Below, one piece after another: positions 10,055 through 62,597 of a stretch of 64,000 nucleotides of DNA. Every line of letters starts with the position of its first letter. Within the stretch, counting starts at the first letter, position 1. The notes below the pieces were generated by a model, which saw nothing but the letters and a program-made list of their open reading frames with translations, was not told where the DNA came from and made no database searches. Source of the stretch: an uncultured Bacilli bacterium (GTDB lineage: Bacteria > Bacillota_I > Bacilli_A > RF39 > UBA660); assembly GCA_934167465.1 (NCBI GenBank), contig CAKPKR010000003.1, forward strand, positions 2,992 through 66,991, written 5' to 3'. The position numbers and the translations under genes are program-made.

Positions 10055-11698
10055 ATGAAAAAAGGATTTACATTAATAGAATTATTGGCAGTAATAGTGA
10101 TATTGGCAGTAATAGCATTAATCGCAACACCAATAATATTAAATGTAATAGAAGAATCAAAAAAGGGAGCCGCTGAACAATCAGTAATCGGATATGTAAA
10201 CGGAATAGAGAATAATGTTTTAGTATCAGAATTGGATAATAGTTCTATAGAAGATGGAAGTTACAATATAAATGAAATAGAAGTAGAAGTAAAAGGAAAT
10301 AAACCTGATAGTGGGAATATAACAATAGAAAAAGGAATAGTAGTAGATGCAGTAATGTGTATGAGTGGATATAAAGTAATATATTCAAATAGTAAAGCGG
10401 AAGTCCAAGGAAAATGTGAAGGAAATCTAGTATATAGTGAAGGTATTTTAAATGGAACAGATCCAGTATTAGGTGAAAATATGATACCAGTAACAATAGA
10501 AAAAGATGGAACAGTAAAATATGCAGATATAAATAAGAAATGGTATAGTTATGGAAATAAAGAATGGGCAAATGCAGTAATATTAAATACAAGTAATAGT
10601 TATAATGTAGGAGATATAATACCAGAAAGTGAAATAGAATCATATTTTGTGTGGATACCAAGATATAGATATAAATTATTTAATGTAGATAATACAAGTA
10701 AAGATTCAAAAACATATACAAATTATAAAGATATACCAAGTAAAGCAGAGGAAATAGAAATAGTATTTGAAAATAAAGAAACAAAAATAAGTAACGGAAA
10801 TAAAAATGGTGAATATTTAATGCATCCAGCTTTTACATCATTTGAAAGTAATGGAATGTGGGTAGGAAAATTTGAAACAGGATATAAAGGAGCAACAACT
10901 ACTTCAACAGCTCAAGTAAACTCAAATGATTCTACAAAAGTAATAGTTAAACCAAACGTTTATAGTTGGAGAAGTATAACAGTAGGAAATATCTTTTTAA
11001 CAAGTTATAATTATAAAAGAGATTTGGATTCACATATGATGAAGAATACCGAATGGGGAGCAGTAGCATATCTTTCACATTCAAAATATGGAATAAATAG
11101 TGAAGTAAGAATAAATAATAATAGTGCACATATAACAGGTTATGCAAAGACTGAACAACCAACTTGTGGTTGGACAAATAGTAATGAAGAATGTAATAAG
11201 TTTGAAAGTACGGCTTTAAATCAAGATGGAACATATACAAAAAGATATAATACCGAAATTGGATATTTAGCAAGTACAACAGGAAATATAACCGGAATCT
11301 ATGATATGAGTGGCGGATCTAATGAATATATGGCAGCCTATATGGCAGGACAACTAGGAAATAGTGGACTAATACCAACCGATTATGATTCAAAATATTT
11401 TAATGTATATAATTCATCAAGTACAGTAACAAGTTATCAATATCGCATCTTAGGAGATGCAACTGGAGAAATGGGACCATTTACAAATTTAAAATCAAGT
11501 GGAAGTGATGGAGACAAAACCTCATATGCATCAAGTTGGTATGCCGACCGTTCGAACTTTGTTGACTCTGGTAGCCCTTGGTTCAACCGAGGCGGCGATT
11601 ACGGCCATGGTGTAGTTGCAGGTCAGTTCAACTTCCTTAGGAGCCCGGGTGGTACTTACAGTTACGTTGGCTTCCGCCTAGTTTTAACACCTCAATAA
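10055..11698 (+). CDS. type IV prepilin-like N-terminus fused to an FGE-sulfatase/DUF1566-like domain protein (paralog B1)
   Basis: MKKGFTLIELLAVIVIL is a class III prepilin signal: G then F, with E at +5. The middle and C-terminal parts, TEWGAVAYL, GIYDMSGGSNEY, RGG...VGFRLV, resemble the FGE-sulfatase fold. Confidence 0.6.
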   Translation: MKKGFTLIELLAVIVILAVIALIATPIILNVIEESKKGAAEQSVIGYVNGIENNVLVSELDNSSIEDGSYNINEIEVEVKGNKPDSGNITIEKGIVVDAVMCMSGYKVIYSNSKAEVQGKCEGNLVYSEGILNGTDPVLGENMIPVTIEKDGTVKYADINKKWYSYGNKEWANAVILNTSNSYNVGDIIPESEIESYFVWIPRYRYKLFNVDNTSKDSKTYTNYKDIPSKAEEIEIVFENKETKISNGNKNGEYLMHPAFTSFESNGMWVGKFETGYKGATTTSTAQVNSNDSTKVIVKPNVYSWRSITVGNIFLTSYNYKRDLDSHMMKNTEWGAVAYLSHSKYGINSEVRINNNSAHITGYAKTEQPTCGWTNSNEECNKFESTALNQDGTYTKRYNTEIGYLASTTGNITGIYDMSGGSNEYMAAYMAGQLGNSGLIPTDYDSKYFNVYNSSSTVTSYQYRILGDATGEMGPFTNLKSSGSDGDKTSYASSWYADRSNFVDSGSPWFNRGGDYGHGVVAGQFNFLRSPGGTYSYVGFRLVLTPQ

Positions 11699-11730: not shown

Positions 11731-11889
11731 ATTTAAAAATTATCAACATTTATTTTTAAATTATATTTAATAAATTTGTCGAAATTTATATGTTAAAAAG
11801 TGAATGAAAAAAAGCAAAAATGTAGTAAAATATAAAGCGATATATTTAATTGGTGTTGGTGCATTCCTCCATTATGAGGAGGTGGTATT

Positions 11890-11967
11890 ATGTCTAAAAG
11901 AGAAATTTCCTTTTTCATTATAATACTTCTATTATTTTTTATAATAATTACTTTATTATATAGATAA
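11890..11967 (+). CDS. 25-aa hydrophobic peptide MSKREISFFIIILLLFFIIITLLYR (candidate type I toxin)
   Basis: A strong Shine-Dalgarno sequence, GGAGGTGG, lies inside a CCTCC...GGAGG hairpin. The ORF is conserved in three copies. Confidence 0.5.
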   Translation: MSKREISFFIIILLLFFIIITLLYR

Positions 11968-12082
11968 TAAAATAAGCACTATCACAGGGGGTAGTGCTTT
12001 CTAAATACAATTTGGAATGTATCTAACTCTATCAACAATTAGATATATCCTTTTTTTATTGTATGAGTAATAACTCATCTAT
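11968..12082 (-). ncRNA. predicted antisense sRNA (candidate antitoxin)
   Basis: A minus-strand promoter, TTGAAA-17-TAATAT, is at 12115-12087. The transcript would terminate at the hairpin AGCACTATC...GTAGTGCT plus a T-run, reading in the minus orientation. Confidence 0.4.
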
Positions 12083-12220
12083 ATACATATTAACATTTTT
12101 AAAATATTTTTTCAATAATATTTTAAAATAATTTATAAATGAAATTTTTTATAATTTAATAAGAAATATTGATATATGTTTTTCATCCATTTTATGGTAA
12201 AATAATAATTGGTGGTAAGA

Positions 12221-22914: not shown

Positions 22915-23045
22915 ATAATACTTTTTTTTGTCGGAATTTGTATGTTAAAAAATGGATAAACAAAAACTAAAATGTAGTAGAATATAAAGCGATATATTTA
23001 ATTGGTGTTAGTGCATTCCTTCTAGAATAAGAAGGCGGTGATATT

Positions 23046-23123
23046 ATGACAAAAAGAGAAATATCTTTATTTTTAATAATAATTCTATTATTTGTTATAA
23101 TTTTTATTTTATTATATAAATAA
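23046..23123 (+). CDS. 25-aa hydrophobic peptide MTKREISLFLIIILLFVIIFILLYK (candidate type I toxin)
   Basis: The Shine-Dalgarno sequence AGAAGGCGGTG is sequestered in the hairpin CCTTCT-agaata-AGAAGG. Confidence 0.5.
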   Translation: MTKREISLFLIIILLFVIIFILLYK

Positions 23124-23236
23124 AAAAATGCACTATCACAGGGGGATAGTACTAACTAAAAAACCATTTAGGAATGTATCTAATTTTTAGAACAATTAGA
23201 TATATCCTTTTTTAATTATATGGGCATTACTTATCT
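23122..23236 (-). ncRNA. predicted antisense sRNA (candidate antitoxin)
   Basis: The minus-strand promoter has TTGAAA at 23271-23266, a 17-nt spacer and TATTAT at 23248-23243. A terminator hairpin at 23130-23152 is followed by an A-run on the plus strand. Confidence 0.4.
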
Positions 23237-23336
23237 ATATACATAATAACATTTTAAAAATATTTTTTCAATAATTTTATGTAATTTACGAATATAAACA
23301 AAATAGACTTTTTAACAAAAATTTGATACAATTTTA

Positions 23337-32407: not shown

Positions 32408-32438
32408 TTGACAAAAACGTCTGGGGGGGGGGTATGAT
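32408..32438 (+). promoter_or_regulatory. poly-G promoter of A1: TTGACA, spacer with G10 at 32423-32432, TATGAT
   Basis: The spacer is 19 nt. The homopolymer lies exactly between the -35 and the -10. Confidence 0.7.
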
Positions 32439-32461
32439 ATTGATAGAAAGTAGGAATCTAG

Positions 32462-32917
32462 ATGAAAAAAGTAATAAAAAATAGAATGTTTTTGGTGATT
32501 ATAATAACTATCATAGTTACTAGTGTAAGTGTATATGCCGCAACCACATATAAAGCAACAGATGTAATATATAAAGCAAGTGATGGAACAAGTATGAATG
32601 TAAATGATGCTTTAAATGAATTATATAATAAAAGTAATAATACAGGATATCCTGATATTAAAATTTATTATGATTCAGGTTGGGGTGGTGGTACTTGTCA
32701 AGCATTTGCTAATTTTAATATACCTAAAGGGTATAATTATTTAGAAGTAATACCACCATATGTTAGTTCTGAACATAGTTCATCTATGGAAGGAAAAATA
32801 ATTTCTCTTAATCAAAAGATTAATGTTTCGGAAAAAGATAGTGTACGAGTAAATGTATATAATGAAGCTACTAGTGGAGCTTGTAGAGCAAATGGTACTA
32901 TTGTACTTAGTCATTAA
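32462..32917 (+). CDS. variable secreted protein family member A1
   Basis: The conserved N-terminus MKKVIKNRMFLVII...YAATTYKATDVIYKASDGTSMNVNDALNELYNK is followed by a variable C-terminus. Confidence 0.65.
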   Translation: MKKVIKNRMFLVIIITIIVTSVSVYAATTYKATDVIYKASDGTSMNVNDALNELYNKSNNTGYPDIKIYYDSGWGGGTCQAFANFNIPKGYNYLEVIPPYVSSEHSSSMEGKIISLNQKINVSEKDSVRVNVYNEATSGACRANGTIVLSH

Positions 32918-32924
32918 TTTTATA

Positions 32925-32975
32925 ACTATATTTCAATTATTATTATTATTATGAATAAAGGTTTTTAGAACCTTT
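32925..32975 (+). terminator. terminator after A1
   Basis: AAAGGTTtttagAACCTTT is followed by a T-run. An (ATT)5 microsatellite lies just upstream. Confidence 0.5.
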
Positions 32976-33032
32976 TTAAATTTTATTATTATTTTTTATA
33001 TAAAGTTTTTTTCACAATTTTTTGAAAATTTC

Positions 33033-33063
33033 TTGACTTTTACGTCTGGGGGGGGGGTATGAT
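33033..33063 (+). promoter_or_regulatory. poly-G promoter of A2: TTGACT, spacer with G10 at 33048-33057, TATGAT
   Basis: The spacer is 19 nt. Confidence 0.7.
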
Positions 33064-33086
33064 ATATCTAGAAAGTAGGAATCTAG

Positions 33087-33551
33087 ATGAAAAAAATAAT
33101 GAAAAGTAGAATATTTTTAGTAATTATAATAACTATCATAGTTGCTAGCGTAAGTGTATATGCCGCAACCACATATAAAGCAACAGATGTAATATATAAA
33201 GCAAGTGATGGAACAAGTATGAATGTAAATGATGCTTTAAATGAATTATATAATAAAAGTAATAATACAGGATATCCTGATATTACAATGTATCTTGATT
33301 CAGGTTATGTAGCAGCAGCTAATTGTGCAACCTCTGTTACTATTGATATACCTGATGGTTATAATTATTTAACTGTAACAACTACTGGTAATGTTTCACA
33401 AACTAAGATAGCAATGGATAGCACATATGTTACTTCTGGAGAGAAATATGATGTTTCAGAGAAAAATAGTATATTAATAAAAATTATACATTATAAAAAT
33501 TCTAGTGGTACGTATTCTAGAGCAATGGGAACTATTGTACTCAGTCATTAA
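33087..33551 (+). CDS. variable secreted protein family member A2
   Basis: A tandem paralog of A1 and A3. Confidence 0.65.
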   Translation: MKKIMKSRIFLVIIITIIVASVSVYAATTYKATDVIYKASDGTSMNVNDALNELYNKSNNTGYPDITMYLDSGYVAAANCATSVTIDIPDGYNYLTVTTTGNVSQTKIAMDSTYVTSGEKYDVSEKNSILIKIIHYKNSSGTYSRAMGTIVLSH

Positions 33552-33661
33552 TTTTTAGCTATATTTCAATTATTATTATTATGAATAAAGGTTTCTAGAA
33601 CCTTTTTAAATTTTATTATTACTTTTTATAAAATTTTTTTTTATAAATTTTTGAAAATTTC

Positions 33662-33691
33662 TTGACTTTTACGTCTGGGGGGGGGTATGAT
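33662..33691 (+). promoter_or_regulatory. poly-G promoter of A3: TTGACT, spacer with G9 at 33677-33685, TATGAT
   Basis: The spacer is 18 nt. Confidence 0.7.
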
Positions 33692-33714
33692 ATATCTAGA
33701 AAGTAGGAATCTAG

Positions 33715-34173
33715 ATGAAAAAAGTAATAAAAAATAGAATGTTTTTGGTGATTATAATAACTATCATAGTTACTAGTGTAAGTGTATATGCCGCAACCAC
33801 ATATAAAGCAACAGATGTAATATATAAAGCAAGTGATGGAACAAGTATGAATGTAAATGATGCTTTAAATGAATTATATAATAAAAGTAATAATACAGGA
33901 TATCCTAATATTACAATGTACCTTGATTCAGGTTATGTAGCAGCAGCTAATTGTTCTGATTCCATTACTATTGATATACCTGATGGGTATAATTATTTAA
34001 CTGTAACAATTAATTATCCATCTATTGATACAATAAAGATGGATGGAACAATTATTACTTCTGGAGAAAAATATAATGTTTCTGAAAAAGAAAAAGTATT
34101 AATAAGTGTATCACAAATAAATACGGGTGGAACTTATGTTAGAGCAAAAGGAACTATTGTTCTTACTCGTTAA
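33715..34173 (+). CDS. variable secreted protein family member A3
   Basis: A tandem paralog. Its C-terminus is GTIVLTR. Confidence 0.65.
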   Translation: MKKVIKNRMFLVIIITIIVTSVSVYAATTYKATDVIYKASDGTSMNVNDALNELYNKSNNTGYPNITMYLDSGYVAAANCSDSITIDIPDGYNYLTVTINYPSIDTIKMDGTIITSGEKYNVSEKEKVLISVSQINTGGTYVRAKGTIVLTR

Positions 34174-39666: not shown

Positions 39667-40077
39667 GTGGGAATATTAAAGAAAATTTTATCGAATGATG
39701 AAGATATATTAACTGATAACATATCAGGTGACGAGTACTATGATTTAAAACCAGAAGAAGCATTAAAGGAAAATGATGGTAGTACTAAAATGATACTATT
39801 AGAACCACGTGCTTATTCTGAGGCACAACAAATTGCCGATCATTTAAAAATGAGAAATACAGTTGTTGTTAATTTAAAAAGAGTAACAAGTGATCAAGCA
39901 AAAAGAATAATAGATTTTTTAGCAGGAACTATCTATGCTATAAGTGGTGATTTACAAAAAATCGGTGGTGGAATATTCTTATGTACACCAAATAACATAA
40001 ACATTCAGGGGAAAATAACTGAGGAAACTCAAGGAAAAGACATTCATGATAATGATGATATCAATATTGAATGGTAA
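39667..40077 (+). CDS. sepF: cell division protein SepF
   Basis: The protein has a GTG start. [32 protein letters not shown] matches the SepF core. Confidence 0.8.
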
Positions 40078-40115: not shown

Positions 40116-40574
40116 ATGGAAAAATTTAGCCGTACAATGAGAGGATACGATCCAGAGGAAGTTAATAACTTTTTGGATAAAGTAATTAACCAAGTTGAAA
40201 CAATGGTTAATGAAATGAATGAAAAAGATAAAAAAATTAAAGAATTACAATCTTTTGAAATTGAAAATAAGGCTTTAAAAGAAAAACTTCTTCAATATGA
40301 ACGTATGGAAGGAACACTTAATAAAGCAATAATAATGGCTGAAAAAACAAGTGAGCAAATTAAAGTTAATGCTCATAATGAAGCTGAAACTATTTTAGAA
40401 GATGCCAAAAGAAACGCTAACAGAATTGTTAATGAAGCATTACTTAGAGCCGAAAAAGCTGAAAATGAAGCAAATTTATTAAGAAGAAATACTACTATAT
40501 TTAAAAAAAGAGTAAAAGAAATAGTTGATGCTCAATCTGAAATGGTAGATGAATTAGATAAAATAGAATTATAA
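40116..40574 (+). CDS. divIVA: DivIVA-domain protein
   Basis: FSRTMRGYDPEEVNNFLDKV is the DivIVA N-terminal motif. A coiled coil is present. Confidence 0.75.
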   Translation: MEKFSRTMRGYDPEEVNNFLDKVINQVETMVNEMNEKDKKIKELQSFEIENKALKEKLLQYERMEGTLNKAIIMAEKTSEQIKVNAHNEAETILEDAKRNANRIVNEALLRAEKAENEANLLRRNTTIFKKRVKEIVDAQSEMVDELDKIEL

Positions 40575-40775
40575 TTCTATTTTTTTTTATATATTAGGAA
40601 AGTGCTTCCAAATTTTAAAAAAAAATATATGTTCTATTAAAAAAACTTTCTAAATTTTTGTCAGAATTTGTATGTAAAAAAAAAGATGAAAATAATAAAA
40701 AATATAGTAGAATATAAATCGATATATTTAATTGGTGTTAGTGCATTCCTTCTAGAATAAGAAGGTGGTGATTTT

Positions 40776-40853
40776 ATGACAAAAAGAGAAATATCTTTAT
40801 TCTTAATAATAATTCTATTATTTGTTATAATTTTTACTTTATTATATAAATAA
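40776..40853 (+). CDS. 25-aa hydrophobic peptide MTKREISLFLIIILLFVIIFTLLYK (candidate type I toxin)
   Basis: The Shine-Dalgarno sequence AGAAGGTGGTG lies in the hairpin CCTTCT-agaata-AGAAGG. Confidence 0.5.
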   Translation: MTKREISLFLIIILLFVIIFTLLYK

Positions 40854-40967
40854 AAAAATTGCACTATCACAGGGGGGATAGTGCATTCGCAAAACAAATT
40901 AGGAATGTATCTAACTCTTTAGACAATTAGATATATCCTTTTTTATTGTATGAGCAATAACTCATCT
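40854..40967 (-). ncRNA. predicted antisense sRNA (candidate antitoxin)
   Basis: The minus-strand promoter has TTGAAA at 41002-40997, a 17-nt spacer and TACTAT at 40979-40974. It terminates at the hairpin GCACTATC-acaggggg-GATAGTGC at 40861-40884. Confidence 0.4.
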
Positions 40968-41053
40968 GTATACATAGTAACATTTTAAAAATATTTTTTC
41001 AATAATATTATAAAATAAATTGCAAAATTTTAAAACGCGAACAAAATTTCTGC

Positions 41054-41083
41054 TTGACTTTTACGTCTGGGGGGGGGTATGAT
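41054..41083 (+). promoter_or_regulatory. poly-G promoter of A4: TTGACT, spacer with G9 at 41069-41077, TATGAT
   Basis: The spacer is 18 nt. The conserved upstream box is ACGCGAACAAAATTTCTGC. Confidence 0.7.
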
Positions 41084-41107
41084 AGTATTGGAAAGTAGGA
41101 ATTTATA

Positions 41108-41992
41108 ATGAAAAAAATAATGAAAAGCAGAATATTTTTAGTAATAATTACAATGATTATATGTATAAGTGGAACTTTATATGCAGCGGTCACATATAAA
41201 GCAACAGATGTAGTATATAATGCCAATGATGGAACAAGTAAAAATGTAAGTGAGGCTTTAAATGAATTGTATGAAAATTGTTCTATTACAAAAATATATC
41301 CAAAAGTAACAATAACTACAGAAGCAGATACTGTTATAGGCCAGACAGTAATTGCAACATTAATCAAAGATAAAGATGGAAATTCTCCTAAAGAAGAATA
41401 TGTAGTGAAGGGTACATTAACTAATAGTACAACTTTAGTGTTAAAAAAAATAGGAACTTATAAAATTACAGCAAGTTCTTCTGATGGATTAGAAAATTAT
41501 AGCGATGAAATAACTGTTCAATACGATAATGTATATAATATTAATTATACTGTAAAAAAATATCTTTTTAATAATAGTGATGTAACTGCAGTAACTGGAG
41601 GTTGGGGAGTGATGTGGGAGGCATCTGGTGGTACACCTGGAGCTTCAACGTCTGGTGGTACTGTTAATTCGACATTGTATTTAACTTCTGGATCATCGGG
41701 TAAAAAAGATATGTATGCGAAAAATTCAATTGATTTAACAGGATGGAAAAGAATTGTTATAGTATGTACATATTATAATAATTTAAATAATGGATGGGCA
41801 GGACTTCATTTATATCAACCTGGAGGTTATTGGAGTAAAGATGCTAAATTAGTTGTTGGAGATTTAGGAGCTTTTTCAGTTGGAACATTTACTTATGATA
41901 TTTCTAGTTCTAAATACCAAAAAGAAGTTAGATTTGCATTATTAGCGGCTAGAGTTGAATGGAAAATATCTAAAATATATTTAGAAAAATAA
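41108..41992 (+). CDS. variable secreted protein family member A4 (294 aa)
   Basis: The family N-terminus is followed by a long unique C-terminal region. Confidence 0.65.
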   Translation: MKKIMKSRIFLVIITMIICISGTLYAAVTYKATDVVYNANDGTSKNVSEALNELYENCSITKIYPKVTITTEADTVIGQTVIATLIKDKDGNSPKEEYVVKGTLTNSTTLVLKKIGTYKITASSSDGLENYSDEITVQYDNVYNINYTVKKYLFNNSDVTAVTGGWGVMWEASGGTPGASTSGGTVNSTLYLTSGSSGKKDMYAKNSIDLTGWKRIVIVCTYYNNLNNGWAGLHLYQPGGYWSKDAKLVVGDLGAFSVGTFTYDISSSKYQKEVRFALLAARVEWKISKIYLEK

Positions 41993-42384
41993 ATTTAATA
42001 GTAATTGTTTTTTAGATAAAAGAACCATCAATTTCAAAAATAGCAATTCTATTATAATAACTATGACAAATAAGATCAGAAGAATTACAACAAGGACAAA
42101 AAAATTGGTAATTATTACCATTATCATATAAATTTAATAAATCGTTAAAATTAGTACTGCATTTTTAAGAATTTAATATTATCATAACAATGTCGAAAGA
42201 CAAAGGAAGAAAAAGAAGACAAAACAAAAATCGTGGTGTAGTCTTCTTTTTTTATTGTTTTAAGACTCTTTCTGATAAATTTGCACATTATTTTATACTA
42301 TTTAATAAACTTTTACAAAATAATTTGCGAAAACATTGTATATATTAATTCGACAAAATTTACAAATACGAACAAAATTTCTGC

Positions 42385-42414
42385 TTGATTTTTACGCCTG
42401 GGGGGGGGTATAAT
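42385..42414 (+). promoter_or_regulatory. poly-G promoter of A5: TTGATT, spacer with G9 at 42400-42408, TATAAT
   Basis: The spacer is 18 nt. It has the same upstream box as A4 and A7. Confidence 0.7.
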
Positions 42415-42437
42415 CTAAGTAGGATAGGTGTTTATAG

Positions 42438-42926
42438 ATGAAAAAAATAATAAAAAGCAGAATATTTTTAGTAATAATTACAATGATTATATGTATAAGT
42501 GGAACATTATATGCCGCATCAACATACAAAGCAAGTGATGTAGTATATAACGCAAGTGATGGTACATCAACCAATGTTGAAAGTGCTTTAAATGATTTAT
42601 ATAATAAAACAAAAGAATATAGTAATAATTTTTTTCCATTTAATGTAAATTATGTATATAATAATTATATTGGTTCAACAAATAAAATAACATTTACTAC
42701 TACAATAGAAACAGGAAATATAGATATAACAAAATATAAAATAGTTGGTGGAACAACAAGAGTAGAACCATGGCTAAATACTCAAGGAAAATATATTGAT
42801 ACAACAAGTTCAATAATTAGTTGCAAAGAAGGTATTACGACTATAGAAATAACAGTAACAATTGATGCGGCATCTAGTCTAGCAGGACCCGTTAACTATA
42901 GCGGTGCAATATATAGAATTGAATAA
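42438..42926 (+). CDS. variable secreted protein family member A5 (162 aa)
   Basis: The family N-terminus is present. Confidence 0.65.
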   Translation: MKKIIKSRIFLVIITMIICISGTLYAASTYKASDVVYNASDGTSTNVESALNDLYNKTKEYSNNFFPFNVNYVYNNYIGSTNKITFTTTIETGNIDITKYKIVGGTTRVEPWLNTQGKYIDTTSSIISCKEGITTIEITVTIDAASSLAGPVNYSGAIYRIE

Positions 42927-42976
42927 ATTATAATTTTGTTCTTGCAATAGCATAAAATATATTATATAATTGTTTT

Positions 42977-43190
42977 TAGAAAGCAAGTGCGAAAGACGAG
43001 ATTTATTTAATTATTTAAAAAGAGAGTTCCTGTTTGGTGAAAAGGAATAAATAAACTTAAATCTAGATCACTTTCAAGTTGTGTTTTATGGATAAGATAA
43101 AAACGGTAACGCGTTATAGTTTTGAGTATAAATTAAGGTGGTACCACGTAAATCACGTCCTTATAATTAGGATGTGTTTTTTTAAATTTT
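42977..43190 (+). promoter_or_regulatory. T-box riboswitch leader (Ile) of ileS
   Basis: A TTGCAA-17-TATAAT promoter is at 42942-42970. A stem I AGAGAG element is present. The T-box AATTAAGGTGGTACCACG is at 43131-43148. A terminator is followed by T7. Confidence 0.7.
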
Positions 43191-43205
43191 AAAGAGGTGA
43201 AAAAA

Positions 43206-46200
43206 ATGAAAAAATTTGGAGAATTAGAAAAAGGTAAAGTTAGTGAAAATGAATTAAAAATATTAGAACAATTCAAAAAAAATGACACATTTAATAAATC
43301 AATTGAAAATAGAAAAGAAAGTGAAAATTTTGTATTTTATGATGGTCCAGCAACAGCAAATGGGATGCCTGGAATCCATCATATGTTAGCAAAACTTTTA
43401 AAAGACACAGTATGTAAATACAAAACAATGCAAGGATATAGAGTACTTAGAAAAATTGGCTGGGATACTCATGGATTACCAGTAGAAGTACAAGTAGAAA
43501 AAGAACTTGGATTTGAAGGAAAAACAGACATTGAAAAATATGGAATAAAAGAATTCAATCAAAAATGTCGTGAATCTGTTTGGAAAAATGAAGCAGCCTT
43601 CAAAGATTTTACAGAAAAAATGGGACAATTTATTGACTTGGAACATCCTTATATAACATATGATAATAATTATATTGAAACAGAATGGTGGATATTAAAA
43701 GAATTCTTTAATAAAGGATTAATTTATGATGGACTTAAAATATTACCATATTGTCCTAGATGTGGAACAGGATTGGCATCACATGAAGTAGCACAAGGCT
43801 ATAAAGAAATATCAGTAAATACAGTAACAGTTCCTTTTAAATTAAAAGATGAAGATACTTACCTTTTAGTATGGACAACAACACCTTGGACGTTGTTAGC
43901 AAACGTTGCAGCTTGTGTAAATCCAAATGAAGAATATGTAAAATGTAATTCAAAGGGTTATAATTTTATAGTAGCTAAAAAGCTAGCAAACAAAGTACTT
44001 GGTGACGAATACGAAATAGTAGAAACATATAAAGGAAAAGACTTAGAATATAAAGAATATGAACAATTACTTCCAATCTTAAAAGTAAATAAGAAAGCGT
44101 TTTATATAACATGTGCCGACTATGTAACTATGGAAGATGGTACAGGTATTGTTCATATTGCCCCAGCTTTTGGTCAAGATGACTATGAAGTAGGTTTAAA
44201 ATATGATTTACCAGTCTTAAACCCAGTGGACGAACAAGGAAAATATACAAGTGGACCTTGGGAAGGAAGATTTGTATTAGATACTGATTTAGAAATAGAA
44301 ATAATTAAATATTTAGCTTCAAATGACAAACTATTTAAAAAACAAAAAATGGAACATAATTATCCACATTGTTGGAGATGTGGAACACCACTTCTATATT
44401 ATTCAAAACCAAGTTTATATATAAAAGTAACAGATTTTAAAGATAAAATAATTGAAGCTAATAAAAAAGTAAATTGGTATCCAGATTATGTTGGAGAAAA
44501 AAGATTTGGAAATTGGCTTGAAAATATGAATGATTGGGCTATTTCAAGAAATAGATATTGGGGAACACCAATTCCATTATGGAGATGTTCTTGTGGACAT
44601 AATCATATGGTTGGTTCAAGAAAAGAATTAGCAGAATTAGCAATTGAAGATATAACAGAAGAAATAGAATTACATCGACCATATGTAGATGACATTCATA
44701 TCAAATGTAGTGAATGTGGCAAACCAATGACTAGGGTAACAGATGTAATGGATTGTTGGTTTGATTCTGGTTCAATGCCATTTGCTCAATACCATTATCC
44801 ATTTGAAAATAAAGAATTATTTGAATCACAATTCCCAGCTGATTTCATTTGTGAAGGTATTGATCAAACAAGAGGTTGGTTTTATTCATTAATTGTAATA
44901 TCAACTTTTCTAAAAGGATGTGCTCCATATAAAAATGTCTTAGTAAATGATTTAGTATTGGATAAATTTGGTGGTAAAATGCATAAATCAAAAGGTAATT
45001 CAGTATCACCGTTTGCTACAATTGAAAACTATGGTGCTGATGCTACTCGTTGGTATATGTTATCAGCTTCACCAGTATGGACACCACTTAAATTTGATGA
45101 AGATGGAATAAAAGAAGTAATTTCTAAATTTTTCAACACTTTAAAAAATACTTATACTTTCTTTAGTATGTATGCTAATACCGATGAAGTAGATCCAAGA
45201 ACATTTAAAGTTGAATATAATGATTTAGAAGAAATAGATAAATGGTTAATTTCAAAATATAATAAATTAGTTAAAAATGTAACTAATAGTATGGAAGAAT
45301 ATGATTTGAATAAATCAGTTAAATTAATAAGTAATTTTGTTAGTGAAGACTTATCAAATTGGTATATCAGAAGAAACAGAAGAAGATTTTGGTCTAGTGA
45401 GTTAGATACTAGTAAAAAAGCTGTATATCAAACAACATATGAAATATTAATGGGAGTGTGTAAACTAATGGCTCCTATGGCTCCATTTATATCAGAAGAA
45501 ATTTATAACAAATTAACAGATAAATCAGTTCATTTAGCTGATTATCCAAAATGTGATGATTCAAAAATAAATGAATTAATTGAATCTAGAATGGACTTAA
45601 TAAGAGATTTAATTTCTTTAGGTAGAAATGTTAGAGAAGAAACAAAGATAAAAGTTAGACAACCAATTAGTGAAGTACTAATAGATGCTAAAAACGAGGA
45701 ATTAATAAGTGACTTAGTAACTTTAATTGAAGAAGAATTAAATGTTAAAAAGGTTACATTTATTAAAGATGTAAGCAATTATATGGAATTCATGGTTAAA
45801 CCAAACTTTAAAGTGGCTGGACCTATATTTGGACCTAATATAAAAGAATATAGTAGTAAATTAAATGAGCTAAGTATGGATGAAATTGCTAAATTACAAA
45901 ATGGTGAAACTATTAAATTAGATGTTAATAATAATAGTTATGATATAAATAGTGAATTAGTTGATATTAGAGTATCCTCTAAAGAAGGATTTAACGTTGC
46001 TACACTAAATGATAATTTTATTATTCTAGATACAAATTTAACAAAAGACTTAATTTTAGAAGGTATAGCAAGAGAAATGATTTCTAAAGTTCAAAATATC
46101 AGAAAAGAAAATGATTATAATATAATTGATAGAATTAATTTATATTATAAAGGTGATGAAGAAGTAGATGAAGCTGTTAATAAATTTGATGAATTTATTA

Positions 46201-46301
46201 AGAAAGAAACTTTAGCAATCAATATATCAGTAAAAGAAGGTATTAATAATTCATATGATTTAAATGGTCATGAAGTATTTATAGAAACAGAAAAGAGATA
46301 A
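43206..46301 (+). CDS. ileS: isoleucine--tRNA ligase (long, about 1030-aa form)
   Basis: The HIGH-like motif PGIHHM, the KMSKS motif KMHKS, the editing domain and C-terminal Zn-binding Cys pairs are present. Confidence 0.95.
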   Translation: MKKFGELEKGKVSENELKILEQFKKNDTFNKSIENRKESENFVFYDGPATANGMPGIHHMLAKLLKDTVCKYKTMQGYRVLRKIGWDTHGLPVEVQVEKELGFEGKTDIEKYGIKEFNQKCRESVWKNEAAFKDFTEKMGQFIDLEHPYITYDNNYIETEWWILKEFFNKGLIYDGLKILPYCPRCGTGLASHEVAQGYKEISVNTVTVPFKLKDEDTYLLVWTTTPWTLLANVAACVNPNEEYVKCNSKGYNFIVAKKLANKVLGDEYEIVETYKGKDLEYKEYEQLLPILKVNKKAFYITCADYVTMEDGTGIVHIAPAFGQDDYEVGLKYDLPVLNPVDEQGKYTSGPWEGRFVLDTDLEIEIIKYLASNDKLFKKQKMEHNYPHCWRCGTPLLYYSKPSLYIKVTDFKDKIIEANKKVNWYPDYVGEKRFGNWLENMNDWAISRNRYWGTPIPLWRCSCGHNHMVGSRKELAELAIEDITEEIELHRPYVDDIHIKCSECGKPMTRVTDVMDCWFDSGSMPFAQYHYPFENKELFESQFPADFICEGIDQTRGWFYSLIVISTFLKGCAPYKNVLVNDLVLDKFGGKMHKSKGNSVSPFATIENYGADATRWYMLSASPVWTPLKFDEDGIKEVISKFFNTLKNTYTFFSMYANTDEVDPRTFKVEYNDLEEIDKWLISKYNKLVKNVTNSMEEYDLNKSVKLISNFVSEDLSNWYIRRNRRRFWSSELDTSKKAVYQTTYEILMGVCKLMAPMAPFISEEIYNKLTDKSVHLADYPKCDDSKINELIESRMDLIRDLISLGRNVREETKIKVRQPISEVLIDAKNEELISDLVTLIEEELNVKKVTFIKDVSNYMEFMVKPNFKVAGPIFGPNIKEYSSKLNELSMDEIAKLQNGETIKLDVNNNSYDINSELVDIRVSSKEGFNVATLNDNFIILDTNLTKDLILEGIAREMISKVQNIRKENDYNIIDRINLYYKGDEEVDEAVNKFDEFIKKETLAINISVKEGINNSYDLNGHEVFIETEKR

Positions 46302-46318
46302 AATTTATCTCTTTTTTT
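46290..46318. terminator. bidirectional terminator
   Basis: AGAGATAAaatTTATCTCT is followed by T7. Confidence 0.5.
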
Positions 46319-46880
46319 CTAAATTATTAAATAGTTCAGGATTTTTATAATACAATTCTAATATTTTATTAATAATCAAAGTTGGATATTTACATTCATA
46401 AAAACTACATAATTCTTTAATATTAAAAGAATCTATATCTAATATATAATTTTTATCTATTTTAGAAATTTGTTTCTTTCTTTCAATTTCACTTTTTAAT
46501 TCAAGAATACTATCTTTACTTATATTACAAGTAATTAAACTATTAATAAAATTTTCATTTTCAGGAAAAATAAAATTGTTTATAAAAATTTGCTTTTGAA
46601 GTGATGAATTAAATGATAATTTTCTTCTATGACTTGTAGATGGTAGTGAATTCATATCACTCATGAAAGAAGTTGTTCTACTAGAAAAAGTTTTATATGA
46701 ATTAATTAATTCTAAACTTTTTTTATATAAAAATAGTGACTTATCGTATTTTATATTACCACAAATTTGTCTTTCTTTTAAAGAACAATATATTATTAAT
46801 TCATATTTTTTATCATCAATGTTATTTGTTTTAAAACTATCATCATTGTACGAAAATACATTTTTAATATTTATTTGCAT
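46305..46880 (-). CDS. hypothetical protein
   Basis: The ORF is convergent with ileS. I found no recognisable motif. Confidence 0.35.
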   Translation of the reverse strand: MQINIKNVFSYNDDSFKTNNIDDKKYELIIYCSLKERQICGNIKYDKSLFLYKKSLELINSYKTFSSRTTSFMSDMNSLPSTSHRRKLSFNSSLQKQIFINNFIFPENENFINSLITCNISKDSILELKSEIERKKQISKIDKNYILDIDSFNIKELCSFYECKYPTLIINKILELYYKNPELFNNLEKKR

Positions 46881-46966
46881 TATAAATCACCTATAAAGAT
46901 TATATAATAGTTTTTATTCGATTGCAATTAAATTACAATTAATGTATAATCTTTAAAGGGAAGTGA

Positions 46967-48094
<1,128 letters not shown>

Positions 48095-49681: not shown

Positions 49682-51328
49682 ATGAAAAAACAAGGATTTA
49701 CACTTATTGAGTTGTTAGCAGTTATCGTAATATTAGCTGTGATAGCTTTAATCGCAACACCAATAATCTTAAATGTAATTGAAGATTCAAAAAAGGGAGC
49801 AGCCGAACAATCAGTAATCGGATATATAAATGGAATAGAAAATAGTGTATTAGTATCAGAATTAGATAATAATTCATTAGATGATGGAAGTTATAATATA
49901 AATGAATTAAATGTCGAAGTAAAAGGAAATAAACCAAGTAGTGGTAATGTAACATTAGAAAATGGAATAGTAGTAGATGCTGTAATTTGTATGAATGGAT
50001 ATAGAATAAATTATGCAAATAGTAAAGCTGAAGTCCAAGGAAAATGTGATGAAGCATTAGTATATAGTGAAGGTATTTTAAATGGAACAGATCCCGTATT
50101 AGGTGACAATATGATACCAGTCACAATTGAAAAAGATGGAACAGTAAAGTATGCTGATATAAACAAAAAATGGTATAGTTATAGAAATAAAGAATGGGCA
50201 AATGCAGTAATATTAAATACAAGTAATACTTACAAAGTAGGAGATATAATACCAGAAAGTGAAATTGAATCATATTTTGTATGGATACCTAGATATAAAT
50301 ATAAATTATTTAATGTAGATAATACAAGTAAAGATTCAAAGACATATACAATATATACAGATGTACCAAGTAAAGCAGAGGAAATAGAAATAATATTTGA
50401 AAATAAAGAAACAAAAGAAAGTATAGGAACAAAGAATGGAGAATATTTAACCCACCCAGCCTTCACATCATTTGAAAGTAATGGAATGTGGGTAGGAAAG
50501 TTTGAAACAGGCTATAAAGGAGCAACTTCAACTACTTCAGCTCAAGTAAATAGTAATGATTTAAGTAAAGTAATAGTTAAACCTAATGTATATAGTTGGC
50601 GAAATATAACTATAAATAATATATTCTTAACAAGTTATAATTATAAAAGAAATTTAGATTCACATATGATGAAGAATACCGAATGGGGAGCAGTAGCATA
50701 CCTATCACATTCAAAATATGGAATTAATAATGATATAAGAATAAATAATAATAGTGCATATATAACAGGATATGCCAAGACAGAACAACCAACATGTGGA
50801 TATACAAATAGCAATGAAAATTGTAATAGATTTGAAAGTACATCATTAAATCAAGATGGGACATATACCAAGAGATATAATACGGAAATAGGCTATTTAG
50901 CTAGTACAACCGGAAATATTACGGGAATCTATGATATGAGTGGTGGGTCACATGAATATGTAGCAGCATATATGGCAGGAAACTTAGGAAGTAGTGGAAT
51001 AACACCAACCGATTATGATTCAAAATACTTTAATGTATATAATGCATCAAGTACACAAACAAGTTATCAATATCGAATTTTAGGAGATGCAACTGGCGAA
51101 ATGGGACCATTTACAAATTTAAAATCAACTGGGAGCAATGGTGTTAAGACAGCATATGTTTCAAGTTGGTACGCTTCCGACGCGAATTTCGTTGACTCTT
51201 CTTACCCTTGGTTCATTCGTGGCATCCATTTCATCGGTGGTGTACTTGCAGGTCAGTTCAACTTCGCTAGGAACACAGGAACTAATAATGGTTATATTGG
51301 TTTCCGTTTAGTTTTAACACCACAATAA
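49682..51328 (+). CDS. type IV prepilin-like N-terminus fused to an FGE-sulfatase/DUF1566-like domain protein (paralog B2)
   Basis: MKKQGFTLIELLAVIVIL is a prepilin signal. The protein is collinear with B1 throughout. The last 150 nt are GC-rich. Confidence 0.6.
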   Translation: MKKQGFTLIELLAVIVILAVIALIATPIILNVIEDSKKGAAEQSVIGYINGIENSVLVSELDNNSLDDGSYNINELNVEVKGNKPSSGNVTLENGIVVDAVICMNGYRINYANSKAEVQGKCDEALVYSEGILNGTDPVLGDNMIPVTIEKDGTVKYADINKKWYSYRNKEWANAVILNTSNTYKVGDIIPESEIESYFVWIPRYKYKLFNVDNTSKDSKTYTIYTDVPSKAEEIEIIFENKETKESIGTKNGEYLTHPAFTSFESNGMWVGKFETGYKGATSTTSAQVNSNDLSKVIVKPNVYSWRNITINNIFLTSYNYKRNLDSHMMKNTEWGAVAYLSHSKYGINNDIRINNNSAYITGYAKTEQPTCGYTNSNENCNRFESTSLNQDGTYTKRYNTEIGYLASTTGNITGIYDMSGGSHEYVAAYMAGNLGSSGITPTDYDSKYFNVYNASSTQTSYQYRILGDATGEMGPFTNLKSTGSNGVKTAYVSSWYASDANFVDSSYPWFIRGIHFIGGVLAGQFNFARNTGTNNGYIGFRLVLTPQ

Positions 51329-51508: not shown

Positions 51509-52381
51509 ATGCTTATGCAAATAGAAAAAAATACATTCTATACTTGTAAATATGATAGACCATTCAAAGAAATATTTTTAAATGAACAAAATAAACATTT
51601 ATTAAAAGGATTATTAGAAACAATACTAAAAACAGAAATTGATAAAATAGAACTAAAGCCAAGCGAATTAAATAGTAATAATATAAATATAAAAAGAAAA
51701 TATTTAGATGCATTAATATATGTAAAAGGTAAAAAAATAGGAATAGAAGTAAATTCAAATGCTGAAGAAAATTATTTAAGACCAAGAAATGCATCATTTA
51801 TATTTAATATATATTCATCACATACATTAGTAAGTGAAACATATGATGAAAAAACCGATATAATTCAAATTAATTTATCATATAACTTAAAAGATAAAAA
51901 GAATATAAGAATATATAAATTAAGAGATGAAGAAGGAAAAGAATATATTGAAAATTTATATATTTACGAAATAAATATGGATTACTATAGGAAACTATGG
52001 TACAATAAAAAAGAAGAAGTAAAAGAAGCAAAATATCTAGTAATGTTAGATTTAGAAGAAAAAGAATTAAAGGAATTTGCAAAAAACGATAGAGAGGTGA
52101 ATGAATATATGGAAAAATTGGAGAATTTAAATAGTAATCCAGAATTTTACCAATATATGACACACGAAGAAGATGAAAGAAAGATACACAACTCTATGAT
52201 GTATGAAGCAGAGCAAAAAGGTCTAGAAAAAGGTATAGAACAAGGTTTAGAACAAGGAATTGAAGAAGGAAAAAATGCCGAAAAAATAGCTACAGCGACA
52301 AACTTTAAAAATCTTGGCATAGATATTGAAACTATATCAAAAGCAACTGGTCTATCAAAAGAAGAAATAGAAAAATTATAA
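51509..52381 (+). CDS. Rpn/YhgA-family PD-(D/E)XK recombination-promoting nuclease (putative transposase)
   Basis: The N-terminus YDRPFKEIFLNEQNKH...DALIYVKGKKIGIEV is present. The characteristic C-terminal tail has KGLEKGIEQGLEQGIEEG repeats plus IATATNFKNLGIDIETISKATGLSKEEIEKL. Confidence 0.6.
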   Translation: MLMQIEKNTFYTCKYDRPFKEIFLNEQNKHLLKGLLETILKTEIDKIELKPSELNSNNINIKRKYLDALIYVKGKKIGIEVNSNAEENYLRPRNASFIFNIYSSHTLVSETYDEKTDIIQINLSYNLKDKKNIRIYKLRDEEGKEYIENLYIYEINMDYYRKLWYNKKEEVKEAKYLVMLDLEEKELKEFAKNDREVNEYMEKLENLNSNPEFYQYMTHEEDERKIHNSMMYEAEQKGLEKGIEQGLEQGIEEGKNAEKIATATNFKNLGIDIETISKATGLSKEEIEKL

Positions 52382-52455
52382 TAAACTTCATTTTAAATAA
52401 TGAAGTTTTGTATCTATTAATTTGACAAAAATCATAATACGAACAAAAATTCTAC

Positions 52456-52487
52456 TTGACTTTTACGTCTGGGGGGGGGGGTATGAT
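52456..52487 (+). promoter_or_regulatory. poly-G promoter of A6: TTGACT, spacer with G11 at 52471-52481, TATGAT
   Basis: The spacer is 20 nt. This is the longest tract in the window. Confidence 0.7.
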
Positions 52488-52510
52488 AGTAATGGAAAGT
52501 AGGAATCTAG

Positions 52511-53122
52511 ATGAAAAAAGTAATAAAAAGTAGAATATTTTTAGTAATAATTACGATGATTATATGTATAAGCGGAACATTATATGCAGCTAATACATAT
52601 AAAGCATCAGATGTAGTATATAATACCAGTGATGGAACAAGTAAAAATGTAAGTGAAGTCTTAAACGAGTTATATGATAAATCAAATAACAATTCTGATT
52701 TAGAATTAATATATGATGCAATGGTTTCTAAAGGAGTAACACCATCTAGTAAAAAGATAGATGATATTATAATGGCAATCAAAACAAAGATGGGAGTTTC
52801 AACTCATATAGCATCTGTTAGATTTGCAAATAGAGCCACTAATAGTTCTTCATATACAAGGGGTAGAATGTATTTATATGACTCTAGTGGGACAGTACTA
52901 TCATCTAGTTGGGCAGAAGGATCAGGAGAATCAACAATTTATGGTGAGGATGTTAGAGTCAGTTCTGGTACAATTTTATATGCTGGTTTTTCATCAGCAT
53001 CTGATAAAAATACAAGAGGAATATTGCAGCTTGTTGTTGATGGAAATGTGGTAACATCTGTATTTGTTGAAACAAGCAAAGGAACGTCAAATACTAATAA
53101 AATTACAGTTTTGGATTCTTAA
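52511..53122 (+). CDS. variable secreted protein family member A6 (203 aa)
   Basis: The family N-terminus is present. Confidence 0.65.
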   Translation: MKKVIKSRIFLVIITMIICISGTLYAANTYKASDVVYNTSDGTSKNVSEVLNELYDKSNNNSDLELIYDAMVSKGVTPSSKKIDDIIMAIKTKMGVSTHIASVRFANRATNSSSYTRGRMYLYDSSGTVLSSSWAEGSGESTIYGEDVRVSSGTILYAGFSSASDKNTRGILQLVVDGNVVTSVFVETSKGTSNTNKITVLDS

Positions 53123-61437: not shown

Positions 61438-61790
61438 TATGTCGGAATTCGTATGTAAAAAATTAGATAAGAAAAATTAAAAATATGGTAGAATATTAAT
61501 CGATATATTTAATTGGTGTTAGTGCATTCCTTCTATAATAAGAAGGAGAGGTGGTCGTTATGAAAGAAAGAGAAAAACTCTATTCTTAATAATCTTCCTA
61601 CTATTATTTATAGTAATTATATTACTTTATAAATAAAAAAATGCACTATCACAGGGGGATAGTGCTTTCAAAACTTTTGGAATGTATCTAACTCTGAACA
61701 ATTAGATATATCCTTTTTTATTGTATGAGTAATAACTCATCTATATACATAGTAACATTTTAAAAAAATTTTTCAATAATATTATAAAAT
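61438..61790. repeat. type I toxin-antitoxin-like repeat, copy 4, with a disrupted peptide frame
   Basis: It has the same unit structure. The ATG at 61560 gives only MKEREKLYS before a stop. The LIIFLLLFIVIILLYK tail is in another frame. Confidence 0.65.
61560..61636 (+). pseudogene. frameshifted remnant of the 25-aa peptide gene
   Basis: See the repeat feature above. The hairpins and the antisense promoter, TTGAAA at 61776-61771, are retained. Confidence 0.5.
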
Positions 61791-61827
61791 AAATTGCAAG
61801 AATTTAAAACGCGAACAAAATTTCTGC

Positions 61828-61858
61828 TTGATTTTTACGCCTGGGGGGGGGGTATAAT
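61828..61858 (+). promoter_or_regulatory. poly-G promoter of A7: TTGATT, spacer with G10 at 61843-61852, TATAAT
   Basis: The spacer is 19 nt. It has the same upstream box, ACGCGAACAAAATTTCTGC. Confidence 0.7.
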
Positions 61859-61880
61859 CTAAGTAGGATAGGTGTTATAA

Positions 61881-62597
61881 ATGAAAAAAATAATAAAAAA
61901 TAAAATAATTTTAATAGTAATATTATGTATAATAAGTTGTGGTATAGGAGTATATGCTGCAACAACATATAAAGCAAGTGATATAGTATATAACGCAAGT
62001 GACGGAACAAGTATAAATGTAAATGATGCTTTAAATGATATTTATACAATCAAAACACAAGGTAATGCAACAGAAAATGATATTTTGAATGGAAAAACAG
62101 CTGTCGTAAAAGGAAAAATGATAACTGGTACATTTAAAAATAATTTTACCTTTGAAACAATAGAAAACCCGGTTGGTACATCTATTATGGATTATAATGA
62201 GAAAAGAAAAGATAAATATTTGACTTTTACACTAGGTGAAAGGTTAAGTTACAATGATACTAATTATTCTGATTATATGTGTTATATTTATCCTATAGAT
62301 TTAACTAATGTTTCAACACTCATCTTGTATCAATGGAATTATATATCGATGCATTTTACAGTAGCAATTTCATTATTTGATACTCCATTATATTCTAGGC
62401 AAGAAATAATAGATAATGCATTTGCAACGTGGACATATTCGACATCAGGTAGTAAAAAGGCATCTAATTACAATATTAAAGAAATTGATGTAAGAAATGT
62501 AACTGGTAAGAAGTATATCAATATTGCAGTTGTTAGTAAGAATAATTCTTCTGATGAATATTATATGCTTACTAAAAATATAATATCGTTTAATTAA
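61881..62597 (+). CDS. variable secreted protein family member A7 (238 aa)
   Basis: It is the most diverged family N-terminus: MKKIIKNKIILIVIL...YAATTYKASDIVYNASDGTSINVNDALNDIY. Confidence 0.6.
   Translation: MKKIIKNKIILIVILCIISCGIGVYAATTYKASDIVYNASDGTSINVNDALNDIYTIKTQGNATENDILNGKTAVVKGKMITGTFKNNFTFETIENPVGTSIMDYNEKRKDKYLTFTLGERLSYNDTNYSDYMCYIYPIDLTNVSTLILYQWNYISMHFTVAISLFDTPLYSRQEIIDNAFATWTYSTSGSKKASNYNIKEIDVRNVTGKKYINIAVVSKNNSSDEYYMLTKNIISFN

Follow-up and report, generated by a model that had tools for sequence, protein, structure and literature searches.

Between divIVA and ileS in a 64-kb stretch of DNA from an uncultured Bacilli bacterium (GTDB lineage RF39, UBA660; contig CAKPKR010000003.1 of assembly GCA_934167465.1), two genes for proteins with a Sec-type signal, here designated A4 and A5, are each preceded by a predicted promoter in which a run of guanines fills half of the spacer separating the -35 and -10 hexamers. 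The whole of this stretch, with a GC content of 25.3%, is referred to below as the window; it carries seven such genes (A1–A7). The length of these poly-G tracts differs between near-identical strains, and we consider it likely that A4 and A5 belong to a multigene contingency family, whose members are switched as slipped-strand mispairing alters their promoter spacing.

Poly-G promoters and the variation of their tracts

A consensus scan returned TTGACT-18-TATGAT for A4 and TTGATT-18-TATAAT for A5, which agrees with the original prediction of a G9 tract and an 18-nucleotide (nt) spacer at both genes. The spacer is built alike in the two promoters, with 9 nt followed by G9; the promoters lie 24–25 nt 5′ of the ATG, and an AGGA-type ribosome-binding site precedes each start codon. 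All seven G runs of at least 9 nt in the window occupy this same promoter position, 5′ of the paralogues A1–A7, and the spectrum of G runs is bimodal (four G5, one G6, no G7 or G8, and seven G9–G11); C runs of at least 5 nt are missing from the window. We gathered a non-redundant set of 21 poly-G promoters, drawn from three or more species, leaving the upstream box described below out of the search terms. The non-G part of the spacer measures 9 nt in 19 of them, and their tracts range from G9 to G12. A single tract is shorter, a G5 from OGPT01, and this copy seems to have decayed.

The comparison drew on metagenome contigs of other samples, from the Hadza and further cohorts, in which the encoded A5, A6 or A7 protein is identical. 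Where such contigs span A4 and A5, they run collinear with the window over 2.3–8.5 kb at 99.9–100% identity, with 0–2 mismatches in the closest cases. Relative to the window, their insertions or deletions (indels) are confined to the G tracts; the A8, A9 and T9 runs of that stretch keep their length throughout. In contigs encoding the identical protein, the A5 tract reads G9, G10 or G11 (and G12 once, at a contig end); in other samples that of A4 reads G9 or G10; and that of A6 is G10 in six cases and G11 in four. Tract length, on which the original prediction had staked its view of the locus as accessory and variable, is thus not fixed among near-identical strains. Moreover, the combinations vary by sample: the A4, A5 and A6 tracts count 9, 9 and 11 in the window and 10, 10 and 11 in ERZ27287094, and those of A4 and A5 count 9 and 11 in ERZ27287087, as expected if each locus switches independently. 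Three features of a phase-variable locus with a simple sequence repeat (SSR) of the promoter-spacer type are present: a G tract beyond the ~8 nt from which G/C homopolymers are hypermutable, its location between predicted -35 and -10 hexamers, and polymorphism of its length.

In the mechanism that we propose, each gene would have its own sigma-A-type promoter, with the poly-G run making up half of the spacer. Slipped-strand mispairing in replication would add or remove G residues, the resulting spacer of 9 + n nt would shift promoter strength, and each gene would switch on its own, heritably and, within a clone, reversibly. A clonal population could then hold many combinations of expressed payloads, a form of bet-hedging against IgA, phage and a changing glycan or host environment.

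Several observations weigh against this explanation. The tract lengths are consensus values of short-read assemblies at 2–8x coverage, and G homopolymers are error-prone. Many independent assemblies begin or break off right at a poly-G tract (L001, L002, L019/L027, L035, L039, L041 and L047); promoters of this kind are systematically broken or averaged over in short-read metagenome assemblies. At A7 the tract is G10 in the window as well as in five other contigs, with no change of length in six observations. A MutS gene is present, so a mismatch-repair defect does not aid hypermutability of the tracts. The canonical 17-nt spacer, which would require G8, occurs in none of the intact promoters, none of which has a tract below G9, and the mode across the 21 promoters and the contigs from other samples is G10, giving a 19-nt spacer. 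One possibility is that the majority of copies in bulk populations are OFF; the other is an ON length that departs from the sigma-70 expectation, perhaps because G·C tracts have an unusual helical geometry, perhaps because an activator occupies the upstream box. With G9 in the window, A4 and A5 come nearest to a functional spacing. Finally, the structure models of the proteins are of low confidence, and the fold search gave nothing significant.

The low coverage of many contigs, their frequent breaks at the tracts and the constancy of A7 would all fit the view that the length differences are noise of sequencing and assembly, with the poly-G run serving the promoter in a fixed role, for instance as a rigid spacer or as the binding site of a protein. 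We regard this as quite improbable: independent assemblies reproducibly give differing values (9, 10 and 11) at one locus, and no other position in up to 8.5 kb shows an indel, the A9 and T9 runs included. In addition, relatives have tracts with interruptions (G4AG7 and G5AG3) and one tract of G5, as turnover of mutable SSRs would produce, and in a sister metagenome-assembled genome (MAG) some tracts are interrupted or missing, in what looks like decay and turnover. G runs of at least 9 nt are hypermutable in other bacteria.

A conserved box upstream of the family promoters

The promoters of A4 and A5 share more than their tracts. The original prediction described a conserved element before both genes that recurs before A6 and A7, and this is borne out: the 27-nt element GAACAAAATTTCTGCTTGAYTTTTACG occurs four times in the window, exactly at A4, A5 and A7 and with two mismatches at A6, and 0 times in 100 shuffles. 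As first described, the element also takes in the -35 hexamer. Its start had been given as CGCGAAC, which is wrong for A5 and A6, where it begins ATACGAAC; and although it is indeed richer in GC than its surroundings, as had been stated, the excess is only mild (~38% versus 25%).

The box itself has 14 nt, CGAACAAAATTTCT, and is present in 13 of the 21 poly-G promoters, from three species, 2–3 nt 5′ of the -35 hexamer. Within these boxes there are 2 substitutions in 182 positions, whereas variation is unrestricted in the first five bases of the neighbouring 9-nt spacer segment and in everything 5′ of the box. Between A4 and A5 the box is identical in 14 of 14 positions, even though synonymous divergence (dS) in the adjoining coding region is 0.47. 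No further site was found elsewhere in the window or in the non-family loci searched, and a box scan of metagenomes yielded 12 true family promoters, all from the OGPT01 sample set, and 13 chance matches in unrelated genomes. Being conserved and confined to the family, the box appears to be a constrained, family-specific cis-element; because 8 of the 21 promoters do without it, it is presumably modulatory rather than essential. Three readings of it seem plausible: a regulator site, an UP-like element with AAAATTT as its core, or the edge of a recombining cassette.

The first of these can be developed into an extension of the phase-variation mechanism, compatible with it, in which a dedicated transcription factor would bind CGAACAAAATTTCT. 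A deterministic layer, the box, would then be added to a stochastic one, the G tract, which would set the distance from the activator site to the -10 hexamer, as with BvgA in Bordetella fim. The near-invariance of the box amid variable flanks, its identity at A4 and A5, its confinement to family promoters (in the window and in related loci) and its position at about -52 to -39 would suit an activator site. However, the eight promoters without the box are otherwise identical to the rest, its distance from the -35 hexamer varies between 2 and 3 nt, and no regulator gene is linked to it; the AAAATTT core could be an A/T tract like that of an UP element, and the sharp 5′ edge could mark the end of a duplicated cassette. 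On balance we advance the factor tentatively, as possible though somewhat short of probable.

A more specific proposal, that the box is a LexA (Cheo) operator and the family part of the SOS response, stems from a resemblance to CGAAC-N4-GTTCG, the Bacillus subtilis consensus. CGAACAAAATTTCT agrees with it at 12 of 14 positions, and with its core GAAC-N4-GTTC at 7 of 8, but the two mismatches that break the palindrome both fall in the right half-site, which is degenerate (TTTCT), and for a repressor a site on the upstream side of the -35 hexamer would be unusual. SOS control of the family is therefore highly unlikely.

Modular proteins and comparable systems

The proteins A1–A7 share residues 1–56 and diverge entirely thereafter, with C-termini that cannot be aligned; in particular, those of A4 and A5 are unrelated to each other, as the original prediction had it. 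The shared part consists of MKKxxKxR, a 16-residue hydrophobic stretch and YA↓A, followed by TYKAxDVxYxxxDGTSxNVxxALNxLY, that is, of a Sec-type signal and a 30-residue module. All signal regions end in YA↓A, a site like that of type I signal peptidase, at which the signal peptide is probably cleaved. By inspection, A1–A3 have no cysteine in the signal region, and the IICIS of A4–A6 is not a lipobox. Over residues 1–56, the paralogues differ with dS of 0.3–0.75 (means 0.37–0.58), mean nonsynonymous divergence (dN) of 0.16–0.21 and dN/dS of about 0.3–0.45; A1 and A3, identical in this part, are the exception. These values show that the N-terminal module is held by purifying selection at the protein level, and not just by recent gene conversion.

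Beyond the window, a k-mer-seeded search with A4 found 54 relatives, whose matches, apart from A4 itself, are mostly N-terminal and typically cover ~20% of the query. An exhaustive profile search with residues 1–60 recovered 1114 cluster representatives, 107 of them at E ≤1e-10, in which the match always begins at residue 1; family members range from ~56 to 370 residues. A module always at the N-terminus, joined to unrelated and mostly orphan C-termini, fits the shared export and presentation module with exchangeable payloads that had been proposed. Among 150 relatives, Pfam matches are few (two H_lectin, and ALK_LTK_GRD, Ephrin_rec_like, DUF6273, BclA_C and Lcl_C), and the domains concerned are typical of adhesins, lectins and fibre tips. 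Display on the cell surface and binding of ligands are probable for the family. In A7, residues ~60–88 hold a second short motif, GNATENDILNGKTAVVKGKMITGT, common to more than 20 otherwise different family members; placed between N-terminal module and payload, it could serve as a linker or form a second module.

For A4 and A5 themselves, nothing exceeded the threshold in sequence searches of Pfam, NCBIfam, PHROGs and PDB, and Tandem Repeats Finder (TRF) detected no tandem repeats in their coding sequences. Behind the signal and the 30-residue module, A4 has a predicted immunoglobulin-like domain, modelled with moderate confidence, at about residues 66–137 and an orphan, beta-rich C-terminal domain; in its single-sequence AlphaFold2 (AF2) model, the predicted local distance difference test (pLDDT) score is 43 overall and reaches 70–80 only at residues 66–137, the remainder being unreliable. 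The payload of A5 is modelled as a six-stranded beta-sandwich (AF2 with two sequences; mean pLDDT 59, and ~60–75 in the sandwich). Foldseek against PDB gave no match to it with E <0.03, and the weak top matches, which include H-type lectins, are a hint only. In one Hadza strain (L026, ERZ4560118, aligned to 41123–47134), a premature stop splits A4, without an indel, into open reading frames (ORFs) of 161 and 126 residues, in a locus otherwise 99.8% identical to the window; there, the A4 payload is a pseudogene.

Could the block instead be the remnant of a phage or other mobile element, with tail-fibre-like proteins? The motifs NV-DALNELY and DIL-GKTA--G-ITGT resemble tail-fibre N-termini, there is a weak, sub-threshold Pfam match to Phage_spike_2, and the relative P0054 matches PHROGs of unknown function through a glycine-rich domain. 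Against this, the window proteins have no significant PHROG match, no phage genes lie nearby, the genes are placed singly between housekeeping genes, all members have a Sec-type signal peptide, and the base composition is that of the host. A phage origin thus deserves very little credence.

A broader reading joins the box and the modules: a box-bound regulator would act over a distance set by the G tract, the 30-residue module would dock hundreds of unrelated payloads on one surface structure, and recombination at the conserved 5′ cassette would move the payloads about the chromosome. Taken as a whole we find this rather unlikely. If true, it would explain the clustering of tracts at G9–G11, with spacers of 18–20 nt rather than the canonical 17, and would amount to a previously undescribed system of antigenic and adhesive variation in spore-forming gut commensals.

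The simpler explanation, phase variation by promoter spacing, has counterparts in other bacteria. In Neisseria meningitidis, surface proteins vary in phase through a homopolymer in the promoter spacer, poly-G in porA and poly-C in opc; as proposed here, the run lies between -35 and -10, and 1-nt changes alter spacing and hence transcription. The present case differs in its host, a monoderm, low-GC, uncultured gut commensal, in its unrelated proteins, in that the link between tract and expression is a prediction, and in that the switch is repeated over a whole multigene family by means of a conserved cassette. In Bordetella pertussis fim2 and fim3, a poly-C tract separates the BvgA activator site from the -10 hexamer, so that a conserved upstream element is likewise combined with a homopolymer setting the distance to -10, an analogy already drawn in the original prediction; here, however, a good -35 hexamer is present, 8 of the 21 promoters do not have the box, and the activator is hypothetical. 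The tract that switches pili in Bifidobacterium breve lies in a coding region and acts by frameshift, unlike the promoter-spacer tract described here. B. breve pilus clusters are reported to be switched by a poly-G tract (PMC9187656), and the likeness is that of a Gram-positive gut commensal in which G-tract slippage switches surface structures.

In overall logic, the closest match is with mycoplasmas: the vlp family of Mycoplasma hyorhinis, where every vlp promoter carries a poly-A tract, and Vmm of M. mycoides, with TA repeats in the promoter spacer (PMC10502178). There, as in the window, paralogues each have their own promoter and tract, a conserved 5′ region (promoter and signal peptide) and divergent C-terminal regions; independent switching yields combinatorial surface repertoires, as it presumably would here, and both hosts belong to Bacilli in the sense of GTDB. 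Vlp proteins, however, are lipoproteins with a lipobox, and vary in size through in-frame tandem repeats, whereas A4 and A5 have neither a conserved lipobox cysteine nor coding tandem repeats; and vlp genes form one cluster with poly-A tracts, whereas the genes described here have poly-G tracts and are scattered among housekeeping genes. The missing lipobox, the missing coding repeats and the different tract rule out A4 and A5 as Vlp homologues.

Promoter-SSR phase variation has been worked out almost wholly in pathogens and mycoplasmas, and our literature searches turned up no prior account of the family, nor one of switching by promoter-spacer repeats for this lineage. Here, the same logic would take the form of a reusable cassette on a large, unannotated secreted family (1114 clusters, no Pfam family) in an uncultured Bacilli lineage of the human gut, sampled in the Hadza and in other cohorts. 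It offers a testable commensal case of bet-hedging at the cell surface, and flags proteins that probably face host, glycans or phage.

An accessory insertion and its surroundings

The order sepF, divIVA, insert, ileS proposed for the locus was recovered, with SepF and DivIVA upstream and a T-box leader followed by IleS downstream (Table 1). In a close relative (L055), with 91% identity in DivIVA, GlyRS, SepF and DivIVA are followed by a 280-bp leader, IleS and TGT, and 14 kb of its sequence contain neither G tracts nor genes of the family. Local alignment to it stops at about 40587 and resumes at about 42933. The intervening block is therefore an accessory insertion, as the original prediction had anticipated. 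In more distant relatives, the same junction holds an IS30-like integrase with a pilin-like gene, an enolase or an ABC transporter, and pilin-like genes are variable cargo beside sepF/divIVA in the relatives L057 and L058. We also considered a foreign origin on grounds of composition and rejected it, as GC content and skew of the insert equal those of the flanks. Likewise dismissed as a cassette end was GAACAAAAT, which stands in inverted orientation at 42941: it derives by one substitution from the ancestral ileS promoter, which reads ATTTTTTTCTTGCAT in L055, and its 9-mer occurs 7 times in the window.

Table 1. Positions of the family genes, their control elements and neighbouring features in the window
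Feature	Position	Strand	Remarks
TA-like repeat, ~330 bp, dispersed, four copies	11810–12140, 22960–23290, 40676–41010, 61470–61800	+ (40676–41010)	81% column identity
A1, A2 and A3 paralogues	32408–34173	+	Promoter tracts of G10, G10 and G9; flanked by RNase J and ffh
SepF gene	39667–40077		Upstream of divIVA; Pfam match
divIVA	40116–40574	+	PF05103 in DivIVA homologues; conserved left flank of the insertion
Accessory block, ~2.35 kb	40588–42932		TA-like repeat, A4 cassette and A5 cassette; missing from L055
Peptide ORF of the repeat	40777–40854		MTKREISLFLIIILLFVIIFTLLYK
Terminator of the repeat	40885–40860	-	
Promoter-like site of the repeat	41002–40974	-	
A4 box	41038–41051	+	CGAACAAAATTTCT; 14 nt, 2 nt 5′ of -35
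A4 promoter	41054–41083	+	-35 TTGACT 41054–41059; G9 41069–41077; -10 TATGAT 41078–41083; 18-nt spacer
A4 gene	41108–41992	+	294 residues
A4 probable intrinsic terminator	42208–42253	+	13-bp stem, then U run; -17.2 kcal/mol, z = -3.2
A5 box	42369–42382	+	CGAACAAAATTTCT; 14 nt, 2 nt 5′ of -35
A5 promoter	42385–42414	+	-35 TTGATT 42385–42390; G9 42400–42408; -10 TATAAT 42409–42414; 18-nt spacer
A5 gene	42438–42926	+	162 residues
ileS promoter	42942–42970	+	TTGCAA-17-TATAAT
ileS T-box leader	42978–43165	+	Terminator 43154–43176; conserved in L055; right flank of the insertion
A6 paralogue with promoter	52440–53122	+	Box variant, G11 promoter
A7 paralogue with promoter	61812–62597	+	Box and G10 promoter; gene 61881–62597

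The sizes of A4 and A5 are those first given. Family cassettes stand singly or in tandem among housekeeping genes: between RNase J and ffh, between a PD-(D/E)XK Rpn-like gene and an SDR gene, and between parE and parC. The conserved 5′ cassette (box, promoter, signal peptide and 30-residue module) would offer the matching sequence through which recombination could insert, remove and relocate cassettes among such genes. A tandem pair in one strain corresponds to a single hybrid in another, with the promoter of gene 1 and the body of gene 2 (L061 2870–3393 versus L062 2295–3392), a deletion that fits recombination between conserved 5′ cassettes. An identical A7 cassette has a gyrB/parE-like gene 5′ of it in some samples, as in the window, and topA in others (L076/L078 versus L077/L079), which suggests a rearrangement at the junction of A7 and the TA-like repeat. 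Immediately 5′ of the A6 cassette lies the PD-(D/E)XK (Rpn/transposase-like) gene (51509–52381), found in one sample (L067) in a truncated form of 134 residues.

The repeat next to A4 had been described as like a type I toxin-antitoxin (TA) module. A real element of ~330 bp, in four copies, does exist and resembles such a module. Each copy encodes a hydrophobic peptide of 25 residues, with a hairpin in the 5′ untranslated region (UTR) that masks the Shine–Dalgarno (SD) sequence, a 3′ hairpin that is a terminator on the opposite strand, and a promoter-like site on the minus strand. In the copy before A4, the hairpins are convergent and the folds of both strands reach z = -5.4. Judged by its layout, the element looks like a type I module with a 3′-overlapping antisense RNA; neither Rfam nor NCBIfam returned a match. 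Two of the four copies stand directly 5′ of family cassettes, those of A4 and A7.

Downstream, no terminator can be recognized between A5 and the ileS promoter with its T-box (42927–43176). Transcripts of A5 in the ON state would therefore enter the ileS leader and meet the T-box terminator, and A5 switching could affect transcription of that leader. The leader matches the T-box model (RF00230) over its full length (model positions 1–219) with 69.3 bits and E = 2.6e-14, below the Rfam gathering score of 93, and contains the conserved T-box sequence GGUGGUACCACG and a terminator; default annotation of this AT-rich lineage would thus miss it.

Related contigs carry VanY genes as well as the sporulation genes YabP, YqfD and SpoVA, which speaks for a spore-former with a wall rather than a mollicute. 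Two unusually large proteins of 547–548 residues with a prepilin-type N-terminal methylation motif are encoded at 10055–11698 and 49682–51328. Finally, the CAZXOH01 contigs (L003–L011 and L064) carry the MAG label 'uncultured Muribaculaceae', yet have a GC content of 21–27% and family cassettes of the Bacilli type; the label or the bin is probably wrong.

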